Counted from the stretch's first letter, positions 990-24,852 are shown. The stretch: DNA of 51,095 nt from an uncultured Chitinophaga sp. (GCA_964532475.1 CAZHLZ010000001.1:14891-65985), one strand, 5' to 3'. Notes: generated by a model not told the origin, from the sequence alone. A program made the numbers and translations.

Positions 990-2375
990 ATGATCCAACT
1001 TTTAAAAAAAGCAGACTTCAAAACCAATTTGGTTTTTATCGTAAATAAAAAATTCAAATCGGAGGAAAAACTCCCAAGTTATATTAAAGACGAAATAGAT
1101 CTTTTTATAAAATCTAAAAAAGAATTTGACTTTCTAAAACTTTCTAATCAGTATATCTTTTTTGTAAAAGAAAATGAAAATGCAGAAAAATTGCGAGTAG
1201 CAGGACATCAATTGAGAACACATTTAGATAAAAATGAAAAAACAATTTCTGTTCTTGGTGAATCAACATTCGTTTTAGCATTGATAGAAGGATTTTTGTT
1301 ATCCAACTATCAATTTTTGAAATACTTTTCAGATGCAAAAGAAAAAGCTTTTAAACTAGAGTCAGTTGGTGTTCTTTCTCCAAGCCAAAAAGAGATTAAC
1401 AAATTAGAAAACACAATAAAAGCTGTTTATTGGACAAGAGACATGGTCAACGAGCCAGTTTCCTATTTAACAGCAACTCAACTTTCTCAAGAAATCACAG
1501 ATTTATGCAAAAACCTCCCTATTGAAGTCGAAGTTTTTGGAAAAACAAAAATTGAAGCCCTAAAAATGGGTGGTTTATTAGCTGTAAATAAAGGTTCTGT
1601 AGAAGCTCCTTCATTCACCATTTTAGAATACAAACCTAAAAAAGCAAAAAATAAAAAACCAATTGTTTTGGTAGGAAAAGGGGTTGTTTATGACACTGGA
1701 GGTTTAAGTTTGAAACCAACTGCTGGTTCAATGGACTTAATGAAAAGTGACATGGCAGGCGCAGCATGTATGGCAGGCACAATTTATGCCGCAGCTTTGA
1801 ATGAATTAAATGTACATATTATTGGATTAATTCCAGCCACAGATAACCGACCAGGTTTAAATGCTTATACTCCAGGTGATGTGATTACGATGTATGATGG
1901 TACCACAGTTGAAGTGTTAAATACCGATGCAGAAGGCAGAATGATTTTAGCAGATGCCTTGGCTTATTCAAAAAAGTATGACCCAGAATTGGTAATTGAC
2001 GCCGCAACTTTAACAGGCGCAGCGGTGGTTGCAATAGGTACAAAAGCATCATGCTTGATGGGGAATGCAGATCAAAAAACAATGGATAAATTAGTTCAAG
2101 CTGGAAACAAAGTGCACGAAAGGGTTGTACAACTTCCATTTTGGGATGAATATTACGAAGAAATGAAATCTTCCATCGCTGATCTAAAAAATATTGGCGG
2201 AAAATATGCAGGAATGATTACAGCAGGAAAATTTTTAGAACATTTCGTGAAAGCACCTTACATTCATATTGATATTGCAGGACCTTCATTTTTAGAAAGT
2301 CCAGAAAATTACAAAGGAAAAGGCGGAACGGGAGTGGGTGTTCGATTATTAACGGATTTTTTAGAATCTATATAA
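990..2375 (+). CDS. pepA: Leucyl aminopeptidase, M17 family
   Basis: M17 signature NTDAEGRMILADAL and VGKGVVYDTGGLSLKP. The ATG at 990 (MIQLLKK) is preferred over the TTG-extended start at 921. Confidence 0.9.
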   Translation: MIQLLKKADFKTNLVFIVNKKFKSEEKLPSYIKDEIDLFIKSKKEFDFLKLSNQYIFFVKENENAEKLRVAGHQLRTHLDKNEKTISVLGESTFVLALIEGFLLSNYQFLKYFSDAKEKAFKLESVGVLSPSQKEINKLENTIKAVYWTRDMVNEPVSYLTATQLSQEITDLCKNLPIEVEVFGKTKIEALKMGGLLAVNKGSVEAPSFTILEYKPKKAKNKKPIVLVGKGVVYDTGGLSLKPTAGSMDLMKSDMAGAACMAGTIYAAALNELNVHIIGLIPATDNRPGLNAYTPGDVITMYDGTTVEVLNTDAEGRMILADALAYSKKYDPELVIDAATLTGAAVVAIGTKASCLMGNADQKTMDKLVQAGNKVHERVVQLPFWDEYYEEMKSSIADLKNIGGKYAGMITAGKFLEHFVKAPYIHIDIAGPSFLESPENYKGKGGTGVGVRLLTDFLESI

Positions 2376-2398
2376 CTTGATTTAAAAACAAAATTAAA

Positions 2399-3472
2399 AT
2401 GATTCGAGTAGGAATTACATTGGGTGACATGAACGGAATCGGGCCTGAAATCATAATCAAGGCACTGAGAGACAATCGAATTTTACAAGATTTTATTCCA
2501 ATTGTTTATGGCTCAACAAAAGTTTTTTCTTTTTACAAAAAAGCGCTAAACGACGATGAATTTGTATACCAGTCGTGTAAAAATGCTGGAGAAGCAGTAC
2601 AAAAGAAAATTAATATAGTAAATGTTTGGAATGAGGAACTCAAATTTGATGTTGGGAAATCAACTGAATTAGGTGGGAAATATGCATTTTTAGCTCTTGA
2701 AAAAGCTACTGAAGATTTAGCAGCTAACAAAATTGATGTACTTGTTACAGCTCCAATTTGTAAAGATGGAATAATAAAGGCAGGATTTCAATTCCCAGGT
2801 CACACCGAATATTTGGCACATTTATCAGGAGTTGATGACGCCTTGATGTTGATGATAAACGGAGATTTACGCGTTGCATTGGCTACAACTCACGTCGCTT
2901 TAAAAGATGTTGCTTCTCAATTGTCAAAAGAGAAAATTATTGTAAAAATTAAACAATTAGAAGCTAGTTTGAAAAAGGATTTTGGGATTATTCGTCCAAA
3001 GATTGCAGTTTTTGGACTCAACCCTCATGCTGGTGAGAATGGGAAAATGGGCGAAGAAGAAACCACAATAATAAATCCTGCCATTCAACAAGCAAAATCT
3101 GAAAACATATTAGCATTTGGACCTTATCCCGCTGATAGTTTTTTTGGTTCGAGCAATTTGAAAAACTTTGATGCAATCTTGGCTATGTATCACGATCAAG
3201 GATTGACAGCATTCAAGGCTTTGGCTTTTGAAGATGGAGTAAATTATACAGCTGGCCTACCAATTGTCCGCACTTCCCCGGATCACGGAACAGCATTTGA
3301 CATTGCTGGGAAAAATCAAGCATCGGAGCAATCTTTAAGAAGTGCGATCTATGCAGCGATAGACATATATAAAAATAGACAATTTATCAAAGATATTAAT
3401 GCTAATCCATTAGCAATTTCAGGTGGTGTGCAAAGCAAAAAACCACATCACAAAAAGGTAGAAATTGAATGA
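2399..3472 (+). CDS. pdxA: 4-hydroxythreonine-4-phosphate dehydrogenase
   Basis: GDMNGIGPEII, NPHAGENG and SPDHGTAFDIAGK motifs; length of 357 aa fits; stop codon is TGA. Confidence 0.9.
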   Translation: MIRVGITLGDMNGIGPEIIIKALRDNRILQDFIPIVYGSTKVFSFYKKALNDDEFVYQSCKNAGEAVQKKINIVNVWNEELKFDVGKSTELGGKYAFLALEKATEDLAANKIDVLVTAPICKDGIIKAGFQFPGHTEYLAHLSGVDDALMLMINGDLRVALATTHVALKDVASQLSKEKIIVKIKQLEASLKKDFGIIRPKIAVFGLNPHAGENGKMGEEETTIINPAIQQAKSENILAFGPYPADSFFGSSNLKNFDAILAMYHDQGLTAFKALAFEDGVNYTAGLPIVRTSPDHGTAFDIAGKNQASEQSLRSAIYAAIDIYKNRQFIKDINANPLAISGGVQSKKPHHKKVEIE

Positions 3473-3519
3473 AAAAGCAAAAAAATTAAAAGTTTTTAAC
3501 AAGGTATGTTTAATTTTCT

Positions 3520-3527
3520 TATCTTTG
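3520..3527 (+). promoter_or_regulatory. Bacteroidota-type -7 box (TAnnTTTG) for the yceD-rpmF-plsX-fabH operon
   Basis: TATCTTTG lies 42 nt upstream of the yceD ATG, in the only sizeable gap after pdxA. Confidence 0.45.
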
Positions 3528-3568
3528 CACCCGCCTTATAGATTTAAGGCACTAAATAGAGTATAAAA

Positions 3569-4189
3569 ATGTCGCGTTCTGATTCACAATATAACATTCC
3601 ATTCGTTGGCTTGAAAATCGGAAAACACGAGTTTGAATATGATATTGACGACACGTTCTTTGAAGATTTAGAGTATTCTTTAGTTCAAAAAGGGAAGCTA
3701 AAAGTGATTTTAGAGCTCGATAAAAAGGAAACAATGTTGCTTGCCAATTATAAGGTAAGTGGAACTGTAACCTCCGATTGTGATCGCTGTACTGCTCCTT
3801 TAGAACTAGAAATAATTGGTGAATACCGTTTGATATATAAATTTGGATTAGAAGAAGCTGAGGATGAAACCCTAGTTGTTTTGCATCCGGATGAATATCA
3901 AATCAATGTAAAAGCACCAATTTATGAGTTAATCATAATTTCTCTTCCAAGTCGCAAAATCCACAAAACCGGAGAATGCGATGAAGAAATGTGGAATTTG
4001 GTAAAACAATATACTGTAAATTCAGAAGATAATGAAGATGATGAATTGGATTTTAACCCAGATGATTTTGGTTTAGATGATGAGGTCCCGAAAGCTTTCG
4101 GGAGGGAAGACGATTTGGATGATGAAAATCCAGATGACGATGATGAAGACGATGAATCTCCCTGGGAGATATTGAAAAATTTAAATTAA
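3569..4189 (+). CDS. YceD/DUF177 family protein with a long acidic C-terminal tail
   Basis: Conserved position directly upstream of rpmF-plsX; CDRCTAPLE motif. The C-terminal ~55 aa are rich in D and E. Confidence 0.75.
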   Translation: MSRSDSQYNIPFVGLKIGKHEFEYDIDDTFFEDLEYSLVQKGKLKVILELDKKETMLLANYKVSGTVTSDCDRCTAPLELEIIGEYRLIYKFGLEEAEDETLVVLHPDEYQINVKAPIYELIIISLPSRKIHKTGECDEEMWNLVKQYTVNSEDNEDDELDFNPDDFGLDDEVPKAFGREDDLDDENPDDDDEDDESPWEILKNLN

Positions 4190-4209
4190 CGATTACAAAA
4201 TAAAGTAAA

Positions 4210-4401
4210 ATGGCACATCCTAAAAGAAAAACGTCGGTTACTAGACGTGACAAAAGAAGAACACACGTAAAAGCAGTTGCAGATAATATTGCAATCTGTC
4301 CAACAACTGGTCAGCCGCACTTGTTTCACCATGCACACTGGCATGAAGGAAAACTTTATTACAAAGGTAAAGTGGTTGCAGAAAAAGAATTAGCAGTATA
4401 A
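4210..4401 (+). CDS. rpmF: 50S ribosomal protein L32
   Basis: [20 protein letters not shown]-terminus; 63 aa. Confidence 0.95.
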
Positions 4402-4426
4402 GTAATTCGTAACTGATTCTTCTTTT

Positions 4427-5365
4427 ATGAAGATAGGGATAGATATTTTAGGAGGCGATTTTGCTCCTGACGCAAATGTTCAAGGAGCAATTTTAGCAAA
4501 AAGTTTACTTCCAAGTGAGGCTGAACTTGTATTGTTTGGTGACCAAGAGTTAATTTTGAGTTGCCTTTCAAAGTTTGGTGCTAATCCAGCTGATTATACA
4601 GTAGTGCACGCTCCAGACGTTATTACAATGCATGACCATCCAACGCGTGCAATTCCAAATAAACCAAATAGCTCCATTGCTGTTGGTTTTGAATATTTAG
4701 CAAAAAACGAAATTCAAGCTTTTGCTTCCACTGGAAACACTGGAGCGATGCTCGTAGGCGCAATCTATAAAATCAATACCATTCCAGGTATTATTAGACC
4801 TTGTATTACCTCTGTGTTACCAACCATCAATGGTGGGAATTCTATTTTATTGGATGTTGGTTCAAATGCAGATTGTAAAGCTGATGTCTTGTACCAATTT
4901 GGGGTTTTAGGTTCCTTGTATGCTAAAAATGTTTACGGAATTGAAAATCCAAAAATAGGATTATTAAATATCGGTGAGGAAGAAACCAAAGGAAACCTTT
5001 TGACTTTAGCTTCATACAAATTATTCAAGGAATCAGATGAAATTAATTTCATTGGTAACGTAGAAGGTAGAGACATTTTTACCGGAATGGCAGATGTCAT
5101 TGTCTGTGATGGATTTACAGGAAATGTTGTGCTAAAGGAAGCAGAAGGAATTTATACCTTAATGAAAAAGCGTGGAATCAAAGACGAATATTTTGATCGA
5201 TTTAATTACGAAAATTACGGTGGAACACCAATTTTGGGTGTGAAAGGGAATGTAATTATTGGTCATGGTATTTCCAATGATAAAGCTGTTAAAAGTATGA
5301 TTATTCACGCTTTTGAAGTAGCAAAATCAGGTTTGGCAACTAAGGTTAACGAAGCATTTAATTAA
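4427..5365 (+). CDS. plsX: Phosphate acyltransferase PlsX
   Basis: GGDFAP and [11 protein letters not shown] motifs; rpmF-plsX-fabH synteny. Confidence 0.9.
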
Positions 5366-5370
5366 AGATA

Positions 5371-6360
5371 ATGAGTAAAATTACAGCAGCAATTACAGGT
5401 GTGCAAGGTTATTTACCTGATAACATTGTTACCAATCATGATTTAGCAAAAATTGTTGATACTTCTGACGAATGGATTTTGTCACGAACAGGAATTTCTG
5501 AGAGAAGAATTATGAAAGATGGTGCTTCTTCGGATATGGCTGCCGGTGCAGTAAAAGCATTGTTAGAAAAAAAAGGCATTGATCCTTTAGAAATAGAATT
5601 AGTGATTGTTGCAACTGTAACTCCAGATTACCCATTCCCAAGTACTGCAAATGTTGTTTGCGATAAGACAGGAATGACAAATGCTTGGGGTTACGATTTA
5701 ATTGCCGCTTGTTCAGGTTTTATTTATGCGCTTCAAACGGGTGCTAAATTCATTGAATCTGGAACTCACAAAAAAGTAATCGTAATTGGTGTTGACAAAA
5801 TGAGCTCCATTTTGGATTATGAAGATAGAACAACTTGCGTTATCTTTGGTGATGGTGCAGGAGCAGTTTTATTGGAACCAAATGAAGAAGGAATGGGAGT
5901 TCAAGACGCCATCTTAAAAAGCGATGGTGCTGGAAGAAAATTCCTTATTCAACCTGCTGGTGGTTCTGCAAATCCTCCAACGCTTCAGACTGTTGAGGAA
6001 AGAATGCATTATGTAAAACAGGAAGGCAAAACTGTTTTCAAATTTGCGGTAACCAATATGGCAGAAGTTTCTGCTGAAATCATGGAAAAAAATAATTTAA
6101 CAAGTGAAGATGTTGATTGGTTAGTGCCTCATCAAGCTAACTTGCGAATTATTGATGCTACTGCAGAAAGAATGGGTTTACCTAAGGAAAAAGTAATGAT
6201 TAACATTCAAAAATACGGTAATACTACTGCTGGAACATTACCACTTTGTCTTTGGGATTGGGAAAAGCAATTGAAAAAAGGAGATAATTTAATCCTTTCT
6301 GCATTTGGAGGTGGATTTACCTGGGGTGCAGTTTATTTAAAATGGGCTTATAATTCTTAA
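5371..6360 (+). CDS. fabH: Beta-ketoacyl-ACP synthase III
   Basis: Catalytic Cys in AACSGF, His in PHQAN and Asn in GNTTAG. Confidence 0.95.
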
Positions 6361-6395
6361 AAATTATTTATATTTACTCTCGAAAACTTAAAATT

Positions 6396-6878
6396 ATGAA
6401 TTTAACGGAAATACAAGACTTAATAAAATTTGTTTCTAAATCAGGTGTAACTGAAGTAGAAATAGAGAAAAAAGACTTCAAAATTACAATAAAAGCTGAG
6501 AAAGCTAAAGAGCAAATTTTTGTTCAAGCAAGTGCACCTCAACAAATGATGCAAGCTGCACCAGCTGTTGCTCAAGCTCCTGCAGTGGCTCCAGCTACTC
6601 CTGCGGCACCAGTTTCTGCACCAGCGGAAGATTCAAAATTGATTACAATTAAATCTCCAATGATTGGAACTTTCTACCGTTCTTCATCTCCAGATAAAGA
6701 TGCTTTTGTTCAAGTAGGTGATTCAATTCAAAAAGGTTCTCCAGTTTGTATCATTGAAGCTATGAAATTATTTAACGAAATTGAATCAGAAATTTCTGGA
6801 AAAATCGTTAAAGTTTTAGTGGACGATGCTACGCCAGTAGAGTATGATCAACCATTATTCTTAGTTGACCCATCATAA
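6396..6878 (+). CDS. accB: Biotin carboxyl carrier protein of acetyl-CoA carboxylase
   Basis: Biotinyl-lysine motif [10 protein letters not shown] and an Ala/Pro-rich linker. Confidence 0.95.
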
Positions 6879-6884
6879 ATTAAA

Positions 6885-6975
6885 GTCTGATTTCGTCGTT
6901 GCTTTAAGTTTACAATTCGTCATTTACACGAGTAAACTCCAAATTCTAAACTTTTAAAGCGCCTAGAACTCAAAC
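6885..6975. repeat. About 91-nt imperfect palindrome in the accB-accC spacer
   Basis: The left arm 6885-6927 is an imperfect reverse complement (roughly 70% by eye) of the right arm 6932-6975, with a 4-nt loop. Confidence 0.5.
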
Positions 6976-7050
6976 ATTAATTAGATTTTTGATTGACAAG
7001 CAGTCTAAAAATCGAACAATCGAATAATCCAATTATCTAAATAATAAAAG

Positions 7051-8385
7051 ATGTTCAAAAAAATATTAATTGCAAACCGTGGTGAAATCGCACTTCGTAT
7101 TATTCGTACGTGTAAAGAGATGGGAATCAAAACGGTAGCTGTTTATTCAACGGCTGATAAAGACAGTTTGCCTGTACGTTTTGCAGACGAAGCTGTTTGT
7201 ATCGGACCTGCGGTAAGTTCAAAATCATATTTGTCCATTCCAAACATAATTGCCGCGGCAGAAATCACAAATGCGGATGCAATTCACCCAGGATATGGAT
7301 TTTTGTCAGAAAATGCTCGTTTTTCAGAGATTTGCCAAAAACATGGTATCAAATTTATCGGTGCATTGCCTGAGCAAATTGATTCAATGGGTGATAAAGC
7401 AACAGCAAAAGCAACAATGATTGCAGCTGGTGTTCCTTGTATTCCAGGTTCAGTTGGTTTGTTGAAAGATGTTGAAGATGCCAAAGCCCAAGCGAAAAAA
7501 ATCGTTTATCCAGTTATCATGAAAGCAACTGCTGGAGGTGGTGGAAAAGGAATGCGTATTGTTTGGAAAGAAGAGGATATTGAAAATGCATGGAATTCAA
7601 CTCGTCAAGAGGCTGCAGCAGCTTTTGGAAACGATGGAATTTACATGGAAAAATACATTGAAGAACCAAGACACATCGAAATTCAAATTGCAGGTGACCA
7701 ATACGGAAATGCTTGTCACATGTCTGAAAGAGATTGCTCTATTCAACGACGTCATCAAAAATTGGTGGAAGAAACTCCTTCTCCATTTATGACAGATGAA
7801 TTGAGAGCTCGAATGGGTGAGGCTGCAATTAAAGCTACTAAAGCTGTAAATTACGAAGGTGTTGGTACTGTAGAATTTTTAGTAGACAAAAACCGTGATT
7901 TTTATTTCATGGAAATGAATACGAGAATTCAAGTAGAGCATACGATTACAGAAGAGGTAATTGATTTTGATTTAATTAAGGAACAAATTAAAATCGCAGC
8001 TGGAATTGCAATCTCTGGAAAAAATTATACGCCACATTTACATGCAATTCAGTGCAGAATTAATGCAGAAGATCCATTCAACGATTTCAGACCAAGTCCA
8101 GGGAAAATTACTTCCTACCATTCACCTGGAGGACATGGTGTAAGAATTGATACGCACGCTTATGCTGGTTATACAATTCCGCCAAATTACGACTCAATGA
8201 TTTCTAAATTAATTGTTGTTGCACAAACACGTGAAGAAGCAATTTTAAAAATGAAACGTGCTTTGGATGAATACATCATTGAAGGTGTAAAAACAACCAT
8301 TCCTTTTCACCAAAAATTGATGAATAATGCAGATTTTAATGCAGGAAATTTCACCACAAAATTCATGGAAACATTCGAATTTTAA
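7051..8385 (+). CDS. accC: Biotin carboxylase subunit of acetyl-CoA carboxylase
   Basis: Full-length 444-aa ATP-grasp protein with [12 protein letters not shown] and [10 protein letters not shown] motifs. Confidence 0.95.
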
Positions 8386-8463
8386 GTGTTAAAAAATAAT
8401 ATTTGAAGCCACAAATTCTAAAGAGTTTGTGGCTTTTTTAATTTTTGTTCTATAAGATTTAAA
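8219..8463 (+). repeat. Direct repeat copy A (functional accC 3' end plus terminator)
   Basis: 8221-8385 matches 10891-11055 at 164 of 165 nt. The hairpin 8408-8433 is identical to 11080-11105. Confidence 0.95.
8408..8440 (+). terminator. Intrinsic terminator of accC
   Basis: GCCACAAA / TTTGTGGC stem with a 10-nt loop, followed by TTTTTT. Confidence 0.8.
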
Positions 8464-8521
8464 TAAAATACAAAATCATTTTTACTATTCAAATCGAAGA
8501 TTAAAATGCAGAAATCTATCA

Positions 8522-9754
8522 TCAAAAACTCATTCCGTATTTGTATATTCGAATAAAATTAGCGTCAAAAGCTCCTGTCCATATGACGTCAAATTCATTG
8601 TTATTAAAGAAAATATTGCCCTTGAAAGGCATTAAATCATCGTACAAACTTAGACTTTTTTCTAGATCGAAGATTTGTAAATATTGAGGGATATTATTAA
8701 TTATCTTTTTTTGAAGTACTTCTCTTTCACTACTTGCTGGACAAAAATTTGATTTCTCTTTTTCTTTAGGCATTATTTCAATTAATGATTTAGTGGTATC
8801 AATTATTTCTTTTTGATAATTTCTGAGATAAATGCCCTCATTTCTAATTTGCTTAATTTTGTAATATCCATATGATTCAATTAAACTTGAATTATATTGT
8901 TCGTTACTTAATTTTTCAGTTGCCTTAAATAATTCTTGATGATTCTTTTGAATGTGGGCACCTTTCATATTTATTTTTTCAATTTTATTAGAAGAAAGAT
9001 TAAAAATAGAAATTAATGGAATAAGTTGCTGGGTAATTAAAATCTCATCTTTATTATTGATTATAAAAGAATAGTAATCTGCATAATAATACGATGCCTT
9101 ATGGTAAAGTGTATCATATTCCCCAATTTTTTTAATTAATTTTCCATTTTTGTTAAATACACCTATTAGACCATCTCTTTTGTAATAATTTATTGCTTTT
9201 TTTATGCTTTTGTCTAGATAATTTTCATTAAACTTTTTTTGGATTGCAACGAAGAAAAGGTCGTTTTTTTCATCATATTTAAAATTATTAAAGTAACTTA
9301 CTTGGAATTTAGAAAAATTAAATTTTGGTTTTATACTTTTTATTAATTCACCATTGAATGAATATTTTCTAAGTTCCGTTCCATCAAAATTCATTGCTAT
9401 AATGAAGTTATTTGTAAAATCAAAAGTCCAAGCTTTAAAATCATCCCTCTTATTTTTAGAATTTAACTTTATCCTTTCTAATTTTTTTAATTTCAAATCG
9501 TATTTAAGAAAACAATTCTGTTCAGTGGGAAAGATATAAAGATTGCTGTTTTTAATATTTGTGCTGTAGCCATTGTCTAAAACACCATCAGTATTAAACA
9601 AGTTAATATTGAGTTCGAAGCTATCAACAAGTTGAAAATTTACATCATTTTGAGAAAATATCACTGATAAAGAACAAAAAGTAGCACCAATAAAAATAAA
9701 TACATTTTTATTGGTGCTTAAAATTTTCCTGATCTTTTTTGATGCAATTAACAT
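8522..9754 (-). CDS. Signal-anchored hypothetical protein, possibly a beta-propeller (DUF4221 / 6-bladed-propeller-like)
   Basis: Its ATG at 9754 overlaps the upstream stop (ATGTTAA). The N-terminal hydrophobic segment is VFIFIGATFCSLSVIF. Recurrent short beta-strand-like blocks suggest a propeller. The family assignment is only an impression. Confidence 0.6.
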   Translation of the reverse strand: MLIASKKIRKILSTNKNVFIFIGATFCSLSVIFSQNDVNFQLVDSFELNINLFNTDGVLDNGYSTNIKNSNLYIFPTEQNCFLKYDLKLKKLERIKLNSKNKRDDFKAWTFDFTNNFIIAMNFDGTELRKYSFNGELIKSIKPKFNFSKFQVSYFNNFKYDEKNDLFFVAIQKKFNENYLDKSIKKAINYYKRDGLIGVFNKNGKLIKKIGEYDTLYHKASYYYADYYSFIINNKDEILITQQLIPLISIFNLSSNKIEKINMKGAHIQKNHQELFKATEKLSNEQYNSSLIESYGYYKIKQIRNEGIYLRNYQKEIIDTTKSLIEIMPKEKEKSNFCPASSEREVLQKKIINNIPQYLQIFDLEKSLSLYDDLMPFKGNIFFNNNEFDVIWTGAFDANFIRIYKYGMSF

Positions 9755-10746
9755 CCAGGACAAGATTTGTCAGGGCATGTACCCCAAATATTTGATCTCC
9801 CACACTCACTACATGATCCATTTTTCGCACAAGTCCCTCTAGAGCTAACCCCTTGTGTAGGCGCATCAACAACTTTCGTGCCTCTAGTGCATTTGCATCT
9901 TTGCCATGGCAATGCAGGATAAATATCGGAAAAATTAGAATTCGAAATACTAAGGAACCAAATTTGATTTTTTTTTTCAATTCCTTGATTTATGTTCTCG
10001 GAATTAAAATTTCCACTTGAAATGAATTTAATTCCTTCAATATTTTGTTTATTTATATTATTATTAATTGTTGAAGAAATAATTGGGGTAAATTCAAAAT
10101 TCACTTCTTCACTAAATGGAATAAAAATAAAAACATCATATAATGAACCAGCGACTTCCATGCTATTAAAATTATTTTTCAATACATCAACATCTGTAAA
10201 CGATCCTCCGTTTTTAAGAAGTGATCCTACCATAAGATCCAACAAATTTATATCATACTCCTCCAACTTAGTTTTTAACTTATTCAAATATACTTTTTCA
10301 TTATTGTCTTGGACCTGAATTAACTCTTTTACAATATCTCTAATTATTTGATGATTAGTCAATTCTAAAATTGACATTTTAAGAACTTTTAACCTCTCGT
10401 TAACTAAACTTTCATCTTCAACATTAAAAATTAAATCTTCTATTATTTCTGGATCTTCACAATACTTGTTGGCATAAACTTGTTCACTCAAATTTGTTTT
10501 TACTACCTCAGCTAATTGATCATTGTCATTTATCTTTATTAATACAGATTCATTAGTTGAAAATAAATTTTTTGCGTGAGGACTTGTTTTTCTTTCGCAT
10601 AAAGTTATTTCATCAAAAACGATAGATATTTCAAAGGTCCCTAAATCATAAGTTCCAATAATTTTTCCTTGGTGGATTTCCTCATTTTGAGCGTTTAATT
10701 GAAAAGCGACAAGAAATAGAATTGAATTTAAAATTACTTTTTTCAT
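9748..10746 (-). CDS. Secreted hypothetical protein (332 aa) with a C-terminal 8-Cys module
   Basis: Signal peptide MKKVILNSILFLVAFQLNAQ starts at the ATG at 10746. The last 49 aa read C-x-C-x19-C-x5-C-x2-C-x8-C-x4-C-x2-C and then stop. Confidence 0.7.
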   Translation of the reverse strand: MKKVILNSILFLVAFQLNAQNEEIHQGKIIGTYDLGTFEISIVFDEITLCERKTSPHAKNLFSTNESVLIKINDNDQLAEVVKTNLSEQVYANKYCEDPEIIEDLIFNVEDESLVNERLKVLKMSILELTNHQIIRDIVKELIQVQDNNEKVYLNKLKTKLEEYDINLLDLMVGSLLKNGGSFTDVDVLKNNFNSMEVAGSLYDVFIFIPFSEEVNFEFTPIISSTINNNINKQNIEGIKFISSGNFNSENINQGIEKKNQIWFLSISNSNFSDIYPALPWQRCKCTRGTKVVDAPTQGVSSRGTCAKNGSCSECGRSNIWGTCPDKSCPGC

Positions 10747-10768
10747 AAAATATTTATTAAAGATTAAG

Positions 10769-10794
10769 CAACAAAACAAAACAAAACAAAACAA
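10769..10794. repeat. Pentanucleotide microsatellite (CAAAA)x4 plus partial units
   Basis: Perfect CAAAA x4 at 10772-10791 with partial units on both sides, 23-48 nt upstream of the ATG at 10746. Confidence 0.9.
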
Positions 10795-10890
10795 TTAACA
10801 TTTCCAAATAAAATAAAAAATATTTTACTCTTATTTAAAAAAGAAGTTATACTATTTTTAAAAATCATAAAACATCTTTTTACTAAAATT

Positions 10891-11055
10891 GCACAAACAC
10901 GTGAAGAAGCAATTTTAAAAATGAAACGTGCTTTGGATGAATACATCATTGAAGGTGTAAAAACAACCATTCCTTTTCACCAAAAATTGATGAATAATGC
11001 AGATTTTAATGCAGGAAATTTCACCACAAAATTCATGGAGACATTCGAATTTTAA
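10891..11055 (+). pseudogene. accC: Orphan 3' fragment of accC (last 54 codons plus stop)
   Basis: Translates to [18 protein letters not shown]...TKFMETFEF*, identical to the accC C-terminus. There is no upstream accC body or start codon. Confidence 0.9.
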
Positions 11056-11079
11056 GTGTTAAACAAATTATATCTGAAA

Positions 11080-11111
11080 GCCACAAATTCTAAAGAGTTT
11101 GTGGCTTTTTT
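11080..11111 (+). terminator. Duplicated copy of the accC terminator hairpin
   Basis: Same GCCACAAA...TTTGTGGC hairpin followed by a T-run. Confidence 0.6.
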
Positions 11112-11812
11112 AGTTTTTGTTCCACAAGTTTTAAACGTTTTCCTCCAAAAAACACATAAAATCGAATTTTTGGAATCTCATTCTTATTACTTTGCTCAAT
11201 TTTATACGAATAAGAAATAGTAGAAAAACTTGAAAATTTATTGTCACGAATAAAATCAATTTTAAGTAATTCCTTTTTTATCAATTCACTAAATTCAATT
11301 TCATTGTACAGAGGAACTGGAAATTCTTGCTGATTTTTTCTAAAAAATAAATGTATTGAGCTTCTTGAATCTTTTTCATTAAAGTAACATTTCCCTTTGA
11401 ATTTACTAATCGGTAACTGCATAGAATAAGCATTGATAAGGCCGAAATTTGTGTTAAAATATGGCAAAGCACGCTCAAAAAATCTTTTAATTTTCCAAAA
11501 TTTTTTCCAACTAAATTTTTTATTATAAAAATAGGTCTCTGTAATTAGAGCAAAATCATTTAGAATTTTACTTGAATACAAAGTATCTTTCTTTTTTTTT
11601 GCACTCACTAAAGAATTAAAAAATACATTTTCCAATTGAACATCAAAATTTGATTTGATATTTATTTCATTTGAATCAAGCGTACTTGCTTTAATTTCTG
11701 AATAAAAATCTTGACGATTGACGATATCTGCCAACCTTTTTATGCAAAATTTTCTTTGTCCAATCGAATGAAAGGATAACAATATACTGATTAATATGGA
11801 TAAAATTTTCAT
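11090..11812 (-). CDS. Secreted hypothetical protein (240 aa)
   Basis: Signal peptide MKILSILISILLSFHSIGQ. There is a 1-nt TAATG overlap with the upstream LRR gene. Its stop codon lies in the loop of the duplicated terminator. Confidence 0.6.
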   Translation of the reverse strand: MKILSILISILLSFHSIGQRKFCIKRLADIVNRQDFYSEIKASTLDSNEINIKSNFDVQLENVFFNSLVSAKKKKDTLYSSKILNDFALITETYFYNKKFSWKKFWKIKRFFERALPYFNTNFGLINAYSMQLPISKFKGKCYFNEKDSRSSIHLFFRKNQQEFPVPLYNEIEFSELIKKELLKIDFIRDNKFSSFSTISYSYKIEQSNKNEIPKIRFYVFFGGKRLKLVEQKLKKPQTL

Positions 11813-14337
11813 TAGTCCAAAATACTTTTCCTAATTTCTTCCTCAGTCAAACCTACTGTTGAAAATCGTTTCACATTTGGAACAGATTGTCCATTTTTTA
11901 ATTTTGTCCAAGATTTCACCACAGCAATTTCGAGGGAATTTAAAACATAAAAAAAGATTATTTTCTTAAACAAATATTGTGGGACACGTGAAGATTCAGA
12001 TTCTAAATAAGTGTTGTCAGATCTAATGATTAATCTGGTTGTGCTTGGAACAAAAATTTTTACATTATTTTGATCTCGCATTGAGTCAGCAGTAGCAATA
12101 TAATTTGCTGGAGGATTTCTATAAAAATAATCGCAATTTACCAAGCCGAATTTTTGAAGTCCAAATTTTGTTCGTTCATTTGATAATCGCAAAGAAGGAT
12201 TTAAAAGCTCATTTGCTCGTAAAATTCGATTTAAATCTGCGAATTTCTTTCTATTTTTTTCAAAATGAAGTTTTGCTTTATCAATTTCTGCTTGATTTTT
12301 TTCTTCATATCTTAAATACTTTCTGTAAAAATCATAATTTTCTTTTTGGTAATTTTTGAGGCTTTTCTTTGATTCAATTATTAATGGAACATCGAATTTT
12401 TTTCCTTTATAACTAAACTGAAACATAAACTTATCCTTTTCAAAGTCTGCACTCACTTTAACATCTGAATAATTTCGAGGAGTAAAATCATATAATTTTT
12501 TATTTGTAAAAATTTTAACATTAGCTGTGTCAGAAGCAATCAATTTTATTAATTCATTGTGTTCAGGATAAATTAGGCTGTCAATTATGAGATAGGAATT
12601 TTCTAAAAATTTCAGTCCCTTATCCTCCGTGTAGAAAGTGGTACTTTTGTTATTATAAAATAATTTTTTTTGATTTACATAAAATTCATGCTTGTGATGC
12701 TTTAATGTCAAATAATATTTTCTAGTTTCTTTGAACTTGTGCTTATTTCCTTTTTGATTCAAGTATTGAAGTTTCATTGGGACATGAACAAGATGCATTT
12801 GCGCAAAAAGTGAATCTGGAAGGGCATTTAGTGAATCCATAATTGAATTTTGCGAGCTCGAATTTTGGAGTGTGTTGACATTTTTTTGTAAGCGCTCCCA
12901 ATTTTTCAGTGAATCGTTGTAGGAAAATAAATCTGCTTGTGTGTTTTGTTGAGTATTCTCCATTTCAACTTGGATAATATTTTGTGGATTTGGATTTAAT
13001 TTGTTCCCTTTATCATCGTAAGCATTAAATTCAAACATTCCACTGGAAGAAAATAATTCTGGTGTCCCACTTTCATTCATAATCATTGGAACTCCCGCCA
13101 AAGCTATGCTGATTGGATCAAAATACTCCTTGATTTCAATTTTTACAGTGCCAGAATAAGGCTTCAAGTTTTGGTCTAAAAATGCATTTTTTGGAATATC
13201 AAAAATAGTGTTCTCACTCTGAATTTTACATGGAGTATCAGCTTGAATTTCATGTTTTTCAATCTTCACATCCACAACTTTTTCGACTTGATTTCTAAGC
13301 ATATTTTCACTGAGGGAGAACATTGGGTTTTGCAAATTAGTTTGCTGAATTAAAACGGAATCAAGGTTTGTTGAATTAATAATCTGCACCTTATTTCGTT
13401 TAATTAAATCTTCTTCATTCTCTATAATCGCATCGATGAAAATTAGCTCTTTTTTTGAACTCAAATCTTTTAAATCGCCTTCCAATTTGCTATTTTTAAA
13501 ACTTATTTTGGTAATTTGTTTGAGTTCATTTAAATCATTATACAAATTTTTCGCCTCTATAAAATCACAGTTGTCAAAACTAATCTCCTGAAGATTTTTT
13601 ATATTTGAAAAATTGGGATTTATGTAATTTATGGATGAATTTTTTATCTTTATTTTCCGGATGGAAAGATTATTCATCGCACCGATTGGAAGCTTGTTTT
13701 CATTTTGACTAAAGCTTAATTCTTGCAAATTTTCTTTATTTTGAAGCGAAATAAAAACATTTTCTAGGCTTAATTTTGGATTGTTTTCAAGCTGCAAATA
13801 TTCCAGATCCCACAATTGATTGAGGTAGAAGTTGTCTTCTTTAAGATTGTTAAATGAAAGATTTAGGTATTTCAATTTAACGAGATAATCAAAACTAGGT
13901 GGTAAAAAAGTAATGTTATTGTTACTTAAATCAAGTGTTTCTAAATTCTTTAGTGAACCAAAATTTTCTGGTACAAAGAATAAATTATTTTTCGCTAAAT
14001 TTAGACTTTCGATCCCACTTGAAAAGAAACTTGAAGGAAATTCAAAAAAATTGAGATTTGGATTATCACTTAAGTCAAGACGTTTTAAATGAGTTAATTT
14101 ACTCAAGTCAATTTGAAAATCCTCCAATAAATTATAAGATAAATCTAATTCTTCCAACTCCGTAAAAAGTTCGATTTCCTTTGGGACGAGCTTCAATTTT
14201 TCATGCGATAAATCCAAACTTTTCACACCTGAAGGAGCAATTAATGCTTCCTTTAAATTATCACAATCAATGCATTGCGATAAAATCTCATTTTGAAAGC
14301 TTACAAAAATTAGAATAAAAATCAAGAAATTTTTCAT
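11812..14337 (-). CDS. Secreted leucine-rich-repeat protein (841 aa)
   Basis: Signal peptide, then about 12-13 LRRs (LxxLxLSxNxL, e.g. LEELDLSYNLL, LKRLDLSDNPNL, LETLDLSNNNITFLP). The C-terminal ~500 aa have no recognisable motif. Confidence 0.75.
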   Translation of the reverse strand: MKNFLIFILIFVSFQNEILSQCIDCDNLKEALIAPSGVKSLDLSHEKLKLVPKEIELFTELEELDLSYNLLEDFQIDLSKLTHLKRLDLSDNPNLNFFEFPSSFFSSGIESLNLAKNNLFFVPENFGSLKNLETLDLSNNNITFLPPSFDYLVKLKYLNLSFNNLKEDNFYLNQLWDLEYLQLENNPKLSLENVFISLQNKENLQELSFSQNENKLPIGAMNNLSIRKIKIKNSSINYINPNFSNIKNLQEISFDNCDFIEAKNLYNDLNELKQITKISFKNSKLEGDLKDLSSKKELIFIDAIIENEEDLIKRNKVQIINSTNLDSVLIQQTNLQNPMFSLSENMLRNQVEKVVDVKIEKHEIQADTPCKIQSENTIFDIPKNAFLDQNLKPYSGTVKIEIKEYFDPISIALAGVPMIMNESGTPELFSSSGMFEFNAYDDKGNKLNPNPQNIIQVEMENTQQNTQADLFSYNDSLKNWERLQKNVNTLQNSSSQNSIMDSLNALPDSLFAQMHLVHVPMKLQYLNQKGNKHKFKETRKYYLTLKHHKHEFYVNQKKLFYNNKSTTFYTEDKGLKFLENSYLIIDSLIYPEHNELIKLIASDTANVKIFTNKKLYDFTPRNYSDVKVSADFEKDKFMFQFSYKGKKFDVPLIIESKKSLKNYQKENYDFYRKYLRYEEKNQAEIDKAKLHFEKNRKKFADLNRILRANELLNPSLRLSNERTKFGLQKFGLVNCDYFYRNPPANYIATADSMRDQNNVKIFVPSTTRLIIRSDNTYLESESSRVPQYLFKKIIFFYVLNSLEIAVVKSWTKLKNGQSVPNVKRFSTVGLTEEEIRKSILD

Positions 14338-24443: not shown

Positions 24444-24478
24444 AAATTACAAAATAGCAAATTACAGATTGCAGATTA
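24444..24478. repeat. Heptad word array upstream of four-helix-bundle gene 1
   Basis: AAATTAC AAAATAG CAAATTA CAGATTG CAGATTA. 24446-24470 matches 24855-24879 at 23 of 25 nt as a direct repeat. Confidence 0.8.
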
Positions 24479-24852
24479 TGGCAACAATTGAAAAATTTGA
24501 AGAATTAGAAGTTTGGAGAACAAGTATGGATTTATGTACTGAAATTTACAAATTGACTAATACTGAATTATTTTCTAAAGATTTTGGATTAAAAGACCAA
24601 ATTAGAAGATGTTCAGTTTCTGTTCCTTCAAATATTTCAGAAGGTTACGAAAGAGATGGAAAAAATCAATTTTTGTATTTTTTAGCGATTGCTAAAGGAT
24701 CTTGCGGAGAATTAAGAACACAATTACGAATTGCTTATAATTTGAATTACATAAGTAACGAGGAATATGAAATTTTGAATGAAAAATGTTTATCAACAAG
24801 TAAACAAATTAAAGGGTTTATTAAATATTTGAAGAGTTATAAAGGGAAATAA
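24478..24852 (+). CDS. Four-helix-bundle protein (23S rRNA intervening-sequence protein / Avd-like family)
   Basis: The pattern FEELEVW...A..L...IY.LT, SVPSNISEGY and GSCGELRTQL is characteristic of the TIGR02436/PF05635 family. The ATG at 24478 is preferred over the TTG at 24469. Confidence 0.8.
   Translation: MATIEKFEELEVWRTSMDLCTEIYKLTNTELFSKDFGLKDQIRRCSVSVPSNISEGYERDGKNQFLYFLAIAKGSCGELRTQLRIAYNLNYISNEEYEILNEKCLSTSKQIKGFIKYLKSYKGK

Follow-up and report, generated by a model that had tools for sequence, protein, structure and literature searches.

Host gene 3' ends form direct repeats around a strain-variable two-gene cassette downstream of accC in an uncultured Chitinophaga sp.

The window analysed here is a stretch of 51,095 nt from a genome recorded as an uncultured Chitinophaga sp. 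(GCA_964532475.1, CAZHLZ010000001.1:14891-65985), read on one strand, 5' to 3', and numbered from its first letter. It contains accC, the last gene of a plsX-fabH-accB-accC operon, followed by two direct repeats that enclose a cassette of two genes on the minus strand and by a convergent gene for a 240-aa protein. From comparisons made at the level of sequence, we read the 2.4-kb two-gene cassette as horizontally acquired and as inserted, in some strains and not in others, between accC and the convergent gene. The features of the locus, with the open reading frame (ORF) calls and other evidence behind them, are as follows.

7051-8385, plus strand: accC (biotin carboxylase, 444 aa), intact; TIGR00514 at E=4.9e-217, above the curated cut-off, and Pfam biotin carboxylase domains.
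8219-8463, plus strand: direct repeat copy A (A-type), from the repeat finder and a four-way alignment.
8405-8436, plus strand: terminator hairpin A, from a terminator scan; folding free energy (dG) -19.0 kcal/mol, z -6.1.
8464-10888, minus strand: the inserted segment proper, 2,425 nt, missing from the empty allele L001.
8522-9754/9763, minus strand: cassette gene 2, 410 aa from the ATG at 9754 (413 aa from 9763), by ORF calling and homology.
9748-10746, minus strand: cassette gene 1, 332 aa, by ORF calling, HMMER family and an AlphaFold2 (AF2) model.
10747-10888, minus strand: cassette leader/promoter region, 142 nt, by reading of the sequence and alignment with the related locus L003.
10889-11135, plus strand: direct repeat copy B (B-type), from the repeat finder and the four-way alignment.
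11076-11109, plus strand: terminator hairpin B, from the terminator scan; dG -19.9 kcal/mol, z about -6.
11090-11812, minus strand: convergent 240-aa gene, function unassigned, by ORF calling and alignment.

A first-pass annotation had proposed that the accC 3' end and its terminator are duplicated as direct repeats around a 2.4-kb two-gene cassette, and both the repeat finder and the alignment bore this out. The repeat finder returned two blocks, 8219-8396 versus 10889-11066 (178 nt, 99%) and 8406-8463 versus 11078-11135 (58 nt, 93%), whose start-to-start distances of 2670 and 2672 nt differ because the stop-to-hairpin spacers differ by 2 nt in length. With a 14-nt seed, these copies were the only direct repeats of at least 30 nt in the whole window. 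Copy A consists of the final 167 nt of accC (8219-8385), a 19-nt spacer, the terminator hairpin, a T-run and a 30-nt tail, and copy B consists of a second accC 3' end (10889-11055), a 21-nt spacer, the hairpin, the T-run and the tail. The accC end in copy B is an orphan with no accC gene body upstream, and ORF calling placed only two ORFs between the copies, both on the minus strand, as had been read at first. The accC coding parts of the two copies differ at 1/167 positions, the synonymous GAA/GAG exchange at 8370/11040 already noted in the first-pass annotation, and the non-coding parts differ at 8/80, which gives nine differing positions in total and an uneven divergence (Fisher p=6e-4). 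In the four-way alignment, the diverged spacer of the earlier description resolved into two 1-nt indels plus substitutions, and similarity was lost about 30 nt beyond the T-run, again as described; the repeat boundary is sharp at 8219/10889 and fading at the opposite side. The recurrence of the terminator hairpin was exact by terminator scan and folding, with a 14-15-bp stem followed by a T-run in both copies. Hairpin A has an A-run on its upstream side and a T-run on its downstream side, and bidirectional action is therefore possible; it terminates accC and probably also the cassette operon that reaches it on the minus strand.

The repeat reaches further than the end of accC. It also spans the last 46 nt (11090-11135) of the convergent 240-aa gene, the stop codon of which (11090-11092) is located inside terminator hairpin B. 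The stop and the last six codons (11090-11109) fall within the accC terminator stem-loop, so that the same hairpin is at once the coding end of one gene and the terminator of its convergent neighbour. The 30-nt tail of copy A is homologous to the 3' end of the 240-aa gene and would still code for a similar C-terminus (...LNLIEQKLKKPQTL before the stop, against ...LKLVEQKLKKPQTL before the stop). The duplicated unit is thus the common 3'-end/terminator region of two convergent genes, and accC and the 240-aa gene each keep their own coding end and terminator after the insertion. The first-pass annotation had missed the end of the 240-aa gene within the repeat, and had also missed two points taken up below, namely that low GC extends to about 14.3 kb and that the right junction is found in one assembly only.

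The inserted segment has a GC content of 25.9%, compared to 35.3% in the 5 kb to its left. An exact look-up of the AccC protein returned two metagenome contigs from other samples, L001 and L002, both of the same species. L001 is 96.9% identical to the window at the nucleotide level over 7 kb and encodes an identical AccC protein; there, accC and one repeat copy are joined directly to the 240-aa gene, from 11136 onward. Positions 1-7033 of L001 align to 1417-8462 of the window and 6788-7287 align to 10889-11388. Since L001 6788-7033 aligns to both copies, one repeat unit and the 2,425-nt segment are missing from L001, and this empty allele holds exactly one copy of the flanking repeat. L002 is 97.3% identical and occupied: it runs from accC through an A-type spacer into cassette gene 2, and L006, from the same sample as L002, covers the interior of the cassette at 98.9%. 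Conspecific contigs had the window-type cassette at the accC locus only, or lacked it. The first-pass annotation had suggested looking for an empty site among relatives, and one was found within the species, in L001, but not beyond it: none of 80 accC loci from related species (Crocinitomicaceae/Cryomorphaceae-like metagenome-assembled genomes (MAGs), best AccC identity 93%) had a second accC end, the cassette or any of the genes that follow accC in the window, and none supplied an empty site. The event is therefore placed within or near this species. A metagenome scan for the accC-end pattern returned only two distant contigs of 77-88% identity, which were uninformative.

Comparison of the alleles suggested where each copy comes from. 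In the four-way alignment, the empty allele L001 is B-type across the spacer, terminator, tail and downstream sequence, and the cassette-linked copy is A-type in two independent assemblies, the window and L002. Because the empty allele is B-type throughout, the non-coding part of copy A appears to travel with the cassette, and that of copy B would belong to the recipient locus. The uneven divergence of the copies does not fit duplication in situ followed by uniform decay, and the allele types and the uneven divergence together agree with the import proposed in the first-pass annotation. The A and B types may simply be alleles of related strains, since the non-coding part evolves fast even among B-types (5/80 differences, or 6%, between the window and L001). 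Across the accC operon, divergence was 1.9% between the occupied L002 and the empty L001, 2.6% between the window and L002, and 2.8% between the window and L001. The occupied L002 is thus nearer to the empty L001 than to the window, which means that recombination has carried the cassette, or its absence, from one background to another. Divergence of the cassette between the two occupied strains was 1.1-2.2%, so the insertion is not very recent.

We further compared the surroundings of the same gene pair elsewhere. The contexts of seven relatives were fetched, which together with the window gives eight contexts out of about 100 family members, and in each the 500 nt upstream of the pair were aligned to the 500 nt downstream and compared with shuffles. 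Flanking direct repeats of 33-245 nt, different in sequence each time, were present in 4/8 contexts (z of 182 for the window, 35 for L003, 17 for L089 and 89 for L091), and three of the four are demonstrably host gene 3' ends, those of accC, a resistance-nodulation-division (RND) pump and a peptidase M1. The z values for L090, L094, L096 and L098 were 0.1-1.1, none of them significant. In L003, L004 and L005, a pair 64% identical to that of the window comes directly after the stop codon of the RND efflux pump, and the last 85 nt of the pump gene, including the stop, recur 13 nt past gene 2 and are followed by a terminator. The orphan copy in L003 is a mosaic: its last 50 nt are identical to the pump gene, and the preceding 35 nt are 60% identical and still code for a pump-like C-terminus (IQALLLLNTKLE versus IPSLYVLITKFK). 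This arrangement fits an element-borne patch from a diverged orthologue, in which case the previous host of the patch would carry an RND pump orthologue with the C-terminus ...IQALLLLNTKLEIWIYKIGGWKMRSNF. The repeat is the only one of at least 30 nt in the 21-kb L003 locus. Two independent assemblies, L003 and L004 (JGI, ENA), span both copies and continue for 10 kb into unique sequence to the left and to the right; because they do so and the 50-nt identical block is shorter than a read, the integrated architecture there is real. The repeat in L089 is 33 nt long, made up of the final 25 nt of a peptidase M1 gene and 8 further nt, and its second copy lies 11 nt past gene 2. In L091 and L092, about 198 nt of intergenic sequence downstream of a major facilitator superfamily (MFS) gene recur 7 nt past gene 2 at 81-95% identity, a repeat whose host origin is unconfirmed. 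The GC content of the cassette was 6-16 points under that of its flanks in 7/8 contexts. Recurrence at three other loci indicated that the duplication is a recurrent property of the cassette family, not a one-off at accC; these loci, and the attC-bearing relatives described next, go beyond what the first-pass annotation had seen.

Several short-read contigs from this family are almost exactly cassette-sized, namely L005 (2,442 nt), L092 (2,507 nt), L093, L100 and L101. L005 and L092 start and stop inside the flanking repeat, with 18-30 nt common to both ends. Short-read assemblies therefore tend to break at these places, and the cassettes can be expected to be missing often from MAGs; repeats this long break or mis-thread such assemblies, a practical caveat for any survey of them.

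Another part of the family bears the hallmarks of integron-type cassettes. The P0011 pair is present on at least four contigs as a 2.34-kb unit that is 99.7-100% identical among them and has differing flanking sequence, with three right contexts and three left contexts. The unit breaks at ...G|TTATGAGC on the left and at ...AAAACG|TTAG or |TTATG on the right, and its end is formed by a 76-nt imperfect palindrome that has TCATAAC at one border and GTTAGAA/GTTATGT at the other, an attC-like site with a bottom-strand dG of -41.6 (z -6.8). A 133-nt palindrome of like type, TGATAAC...GTTATGA, precedes the unit, and the P0006 cassette starts in the same way, at GGCC|GTTATGAGC. By these hallmarks, P0011 and P0006 are integron-type cassettes; no search for an integrase was made in those contigs. 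Arrays of this type were observed in the Bacteroidota metagenome contigs L098 (5682-8146), L099, L100, L101 and L093, in which the small-ORF cassettes next to the 2.34-kb two-gene cassette differ between samples. L003 may keep a trace of such a site. Its leader is separated from the stop codon of the pump by 26 nt with the sequence ATCGCCTACTAAAACTG|TTTAG, which resemble the attC 3' half beside P0011 in L101 (ATCGCCTACACGCAAACCG|TTATG), which suggests an attC-3'-half-like remnant upstream of the leader; the same pattern had four background matches in roughly 80 unrelated loci.

The window cassette itself has no attC. A scan for palindromes bounded by AAC...GTT gave only low-energy matches inside coding sequence, and past gene 2 the sequence runs directly into the accC terminator. 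The window cassette was not found in different arrays with G|TT-core breakpoints, and its nearest relative, L003, has host repeats and no attC. Arrays of attC sites without an integrase are familiar as CALINs. The cassette family resembles integron cassettes and CALINs in consisting of small, promoter-poor, recombinase-less units of one or two genes, and P0011 and P0006 resemble them further in starting at G|TTATGAGC, P0011 also in ending in an attC-like palindrome and in recurring across arrays. Unlike them, the window cassette lies without attC, outside an array, between housekeeping genes, and its 245-nt host repeats are not a product of IntI recombination. In what we consider the best reading of these comparisons, the window cassette descends from a family of integron cargo and is itself without a detected attC or recombinase. 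Integron gene cassettes are treated in the review PMC8618304.

A search for enzymes and element ends gave the same negative results as the first-pass annotation. None of the 25 ORFs scanned in the window, among them those of the cassette proteins and their neighbours, showed a recombinase (integrase or transposase) domain: five ORFs at 7051-14337 were scanned at E<=0.1 and 20 further ORFs at E<=1e-4, and about 14 ORFs of the 51-kb window, mostly beyond 41.6 kb, as well as the rest of the genome, lay outside the scan. Terminal inverted repeats were absent, with an inverted alignment score of 7.5 for the inner edges versus a control mean of 8.7, and the inverted repeats listed for the window included no terminal pair at the cassette edges. 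A direct repeat at the inner edges (AAAATCA..TTTTTACTA), which had been judged too AT-rich to trust, was likewise set aside here as not significant (p 0.11 versus shuffles and 0.02 versus real AT-rich sequence). Conserved termini between the window and L003 were also rejected, as BLAST homology begins about 60 nt inside the left junction and stops inside gene 2, and an apparent TTTAGTAA match at the junctions was unsupported by global alignment. No core sequence was common to the insertion sites when the accC, RND pump, peptidase M1 and intergenic junctions were compared; the sharp boundaries read ...GTGCAA in the window versus ...TTTTAA in L003. The cassette had no DNA or protein match in plasmid and phage collections and no match in Rfam. 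A literature search on recombinase-less islands with long host repeats and on Bacteroidota integron cassettes returned only general papers on integrons and islands.

We lean, tentatively and at somewhat less than an even chance, towards an insertion-duplication guided by homology (Campbell-type), in which the cassette derives from integron cargo. A related strain would have been the source of a 245-bp copy of the accC/240-aa-gene 3'-end region, borne on a circular form that recombined with the chromosomal copy by host homologous recombination, in a single crossover within the nearly identical accC coding stretch. Copy A would then join the recipient gene body to the donor non-coding part, leaving accC intact with a donor-type spacer, terminator and tail. 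Copy B would join the donor left edge to the recipient non-coding part, giving an orphan accC end and still providing the 240-aa gene with its 3' end and terminator. If the repeats recombined with each other, the cassette could be deleted, which would yield the empty allele, or the circle could be released again, and a released cassette could then spread among strains having the same locus. The junction of such a circle would be expected as ...ACTAAAA|TTGCACAAAC...(repeat)...TTTAAA|TAAAATAC. The host patch would sit where attC sits in the integron-type relatives, 7-17 nt past gene 2, and it is a matter of speculation that breakage or aberrant recombination at attC captures host DNA. The circular intermediate, the single crossover and the first acquisition of the patch are steps that we infer. 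Taken as a whole, insertion-duplication would explain why the copies form an A/B mosaic and why the orphan of L003 is one too, as well as the lack of a recombinase or element ends and the reversibility.

Campbell-type insertion-duplication is familiar from suicide plasmids that integrate via a cloned gene fragment and from lambda dgal, which lysogenises via host homology. The accC locus resembles these cases in that a host segment is single in the empty allele and flanks the insert as two direct copies in the occupied one; the target gene remains whole with a fragment from its 3' end; the element does not have to encode a recombinase; and recombination between the repeats reverses the insertion. 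Unlike the vector cases, the cassette here is natural, the circle is inferred, and the patch varies by locus and needs an explanation of its own. Other points weigh against insertion-duplication. A circle needs a pre-existing patch, which leaves the first linkage of cassette and host unexplained. Four patch captures in four lineages at four loci are less parsimonious than one duplicating mechanism, the absence of a flanking repeat from 4/8 contexts means that duplication is not obligatory for the family, and with patches as short as the 33-50 nt of L089 and L003, RecA-dependent exchange is at its lower limit. The same A/B mosaic would also result if a donor in which the duplication was already present recombined by a linear double crossover. 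Finally, the right junction 10888/10889 is supported by this assembly only, and when the 44-aa orphan ORF and the 240-aa protein were looked up as exact proteins, which might have confirmed it, neither had a record. With regard to the two routes named in the first-pass annotation, Campbell integration and an island that restores the gene end it targets, the insertion itself was established by L001 and L002, and the Campbell mechanism is plausible but unproven.

A less probable explanation, though one that deserves serious weight, is that the insertion process itself duplicates 33-245 nt of its target and that the difference between copies A and B arose later by homologous recombination. In such a process, microhomology or template switching could let a linear or circular cassette fragment be captured where breaks are staggered, where a replication fork has stalled or between sister chromatids; alternatively, it could be the work of a trans-acting transposase of the sort that makes long variable target duplications. 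Later recombination is proposed to have moved the occupied allele into strains of other alleles, or swapped flanks with them. One type of event would then cover repeats of variable length at four unrelated loci and is the more parsimonious across loci, and all four repeats are found at gene 3' ends or terminators or immediately beyond them, positions that tolerate such insertions. Later allelic recombination is also plausible, given that flank phylogeny is uncoupled from occupancy and that B-type non-coding alleles differ by 6%. The copies, however, are not uniformly diverged, the scanned window yielded no terminal inverted repeats, conserved inner termini or transposase, and the 60%-identical pump-like stretch beside a 100% block in L003 is hard to obtain without extra conversion events. 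Nor is any such mechanism established in Bacteroidota for elements without a transposase. There is a partial precedent in IS1634 and IS1549, for which insertion with long direct repeats of variable length is documented (Vilei et al. 1999 and Plikaytis et al. 1998, as cited in PMC2266710). The window resembles them in having variable target duplications of tens to hundreds of bp; unlike these autonomous elements, which have a DDE transposase and terminal inverted repeats, neither feature was found here. As regards a target-site duplication made on insertion, the repeats are host-derived, range from 33 to 245 nt across the family and, in the window, are not uniformly diverged.

The polarity of the change may also be reversed, an option we consider about as unlikely as a duplicating insertion process. 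The occupied arrangement would then be ancestral in the species and L001 a secondary deletion by repeat-repeat recombination, with no recent import. The cassette divergence of 1.1-2.2% between occupied strains is nearly at the flank level of 2.6%, a deletion crossover in the identical coding block would leave a B-type single copy, and L001 is closest to the occupied L002, all of which would agree with this. The finding of 0/80 related species with a second accC end or cassette nevertheless places the insertion within or near the species, and the difference between A-type and B-type non-coding parts still demands two allele lineages. Reversed polarity bears on the history of L001 only and could be combined with either mechanism of insertion.

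It seems improbable that the cassette is a cis-mobilisable element and depends on a site-specific recombinase from elsewhere in the genome, such as an integron integrase acting at a secondary site or the tyrosine integrase of an island. On this account, the element brought in a replacement accC 3' end (copy A) at 8218/8219 and thereby pushed the native end (copy B) aside. Integration at a gene 3' end with a replacement end is well known for islands and cis-mobilisable elements (CIMEs), for example the ICESt1/CIME family at fda and tRNA-targeting islands. The locus is like them in that its direct repeats hold the 3' end of a target gene that stays intact, and some CIME derivatives are likewise without an integrase. 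The sharp boundary at 8219/10889 and the fading at the other side match islands that restore the target 3' end, the target reads G|TTGCAC at the sharp boundary, and the relatives of the cassette are attC cassettes, with an attC-half-like remnant in L003. Against these points, the repeats here are much longer than in CIMEs and variable, the target differs per lineage, and neither an integrase (25 window ORFs scanned) nor a core common to the sharp boundaries (...GTGCAA in the window versus ...TTTTAA in L003) was found. No attC-like palindrome lies in or beside the window cassette, and the strand orientation of G|TT at accC mismatches the cassette 5' end. Moreover, reactions of tyrosine recombinases and IntI do not duplicate the target, and the 245-nt copy would need another form of capture.

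Very improbably, the arrangement is an assembly artefact in which several strains, or an empty chromosome and a free circle of 2.67 kb made up of the cassette and a single repeat, were threaded through the 167-nt accC end: an integrated copy and a circle plus empty site give the same assembly graph, the 10888/10889 junction is in this contig only with nothing added by the orphan-ORF and 240-aa look-ups, and relatives include cassette-sized, repeat-bounded contigs (L005 and L092), but the join of accC to the A-type spacer is independently present in L002, the junction of the leader with the 167-nt accC end must exist in some real molecule, the 50-nt block of L003/L004 is shorter than a read and crossed at both copies by two independent assemblies, and copies that differ at nine positions are not a collapsed or expanded identical repeat.

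The noteworthy point is a host-repeat signature that recurs around one cassette family, the known kinds nearest to it being insertion-duplication islets and escaped integron cargo. It is possible, although doubtful, that the pair represents a class of recombinase-less cassettes from integron cargo that settle at gene 3' ends with 30-250 bp of the target duplicated or carried. Such cassettes would be either "homology-addressed" circles with a piece of a host gene in the former place of attC, or the product of a new process that makes long variable target duplications. If true, integron cassettes would have a way out of their arrays, to end up as fixed genes that vary between strains. Much of the difference in gene content within bacterial species is due to small islets of genes that vary in this way, and the entry route of recombinase-less islets is mostly unexplained. 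The present case offers a precise pair of empty and occupied alleles in one species together with a cargo family traceable across lineages, and a recurrent signature in which host direct repeats lie at gene 3' ends, neighbouring genes and terminators stay intact, and sequence links lead to integron cassettes. If this signature reflects a defined mechanism, the manner in which integron cassettes leave arrays or are recruited becomes testable, and orphan gene 3' ends become a simple search pattern in genomes and metagenomes.

With respect to its content, the cassette is predicted to be an operon for an exported Cys-rich modular protein (gene 1) and an exported partner of about 410 aa (gene 2). 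The two genes overlap by 7 nt when gene 2 is counted from the ATG at 9754, and both proteins begin with signal-peptide-like segments. Gene 1 comprises a signal peptide, a conserved N-domain, a helical/beta middle part and, in its C-terminal 50 residues, an 8-Cys module (ALPWxxCxCxR...CGR...C..C.GC). Despite a confident AF2 model, with a predicted local distance difference test (pLDDT) score of 85.7, gene 1 had no fold or sequence match in PDB. The protein of gene 2 is beta-rich, and its AF2 model was poor (pLDDT 50) and unfit for a fold search. Neither gene had a Pfam, NCBIfam or PADLOC family above noise; an ELP3_N line from Pfam for the cargo was discarded as noise (17 bits versus a cut-off of 27). 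Word-indexed searches returned a single full-length homologue pair, with 64% and 52% identity, and an exhaustive HMMER search with the gene 1 pair returned 102 relatives (E<=0.001), some of which match residues 1-100 only and others 106-332 only. P0012 and P0013 match gene 1 in the signal peptide and across roughly its first 100 residues, and the Cys-rich module is replaced in them; their C-termini were observed to be unrelated to gene 1, rich in Gly and hydrophobic residues, and bacteriocin-like. A homologous partner gene follows gene 1 in 8/8 contexts.

With a conserved N-terminal region, alternative C-terminal modules and a linked partner gene, the architecture of gene 1 looks like that of a secreted polymorphic toxin. 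Polymorphic toxin loci such as Rhs and contact-dependent inhibition (CDI) systems have orphan modules. Like polymorphic toxins, the gene 1 family combines a conserved N-terminal domain with alternative C-termini (Cys-rich, or Gly-rich and hydrophobic in P0012/P0013) and is always accompanied by its partner gene. Unlike the case in polymorphic toxin loci, the orphan fragment here comes from a neighbouring housekeeping gene and not from the toxin gene.

In the leader, an (AAAAC)5 tract, (GTTTT)n on the other strand, occupies 10770-10794, 25-50 nt upstream of the gene 1 start, and its position is kept in the 64%-identical L003 cassette (L003 9944-9968). Such a tract could be a slippage-prone on/off switch for cassette expression. 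Within the first 25 codons of gene 2, a perfect 16-bp hairpin with a T-rich run was observed at 9683-9718 (minus strand), 30 nt past the gene 1 stop (dG -28.8 over 91 nt, z -6.7). It is not present in the L003 and L091 homologues, and it may be an intra-operon attenuator or a recent insertion.

Beyond copy B, low GC (25-29%) extends to about 14.3 kb, so that composition alone cannot delimit the insert. The 240-aa gene and the 841-aa leucine-rich-repeat (LRR) gene downstream of it (11090-14337) are themselves of low GC, 25-30%, and neither was downstream of accC in any of the 80 related species. The downstream side of accC appears to be a general variable hotspot. Because the repeat contains the 3' end of the 240-aa gene, the cassette arrived after that gene was already present. 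The cassette genes are co-oriented with, and downstream of, the 240-aa and LRR genes, and readthrough past terminator B could therefore add to their expression.

Farther along the window, a 127-aa ORF (24469-24852) belongs to the "23S rRNA-intervening sequence protein" family PF05635 (E=4.5e-37), with a weak bAvd-like match. It lies within the suf Fe-S cluster operon, with sufB on one side of it and sufC on the other.

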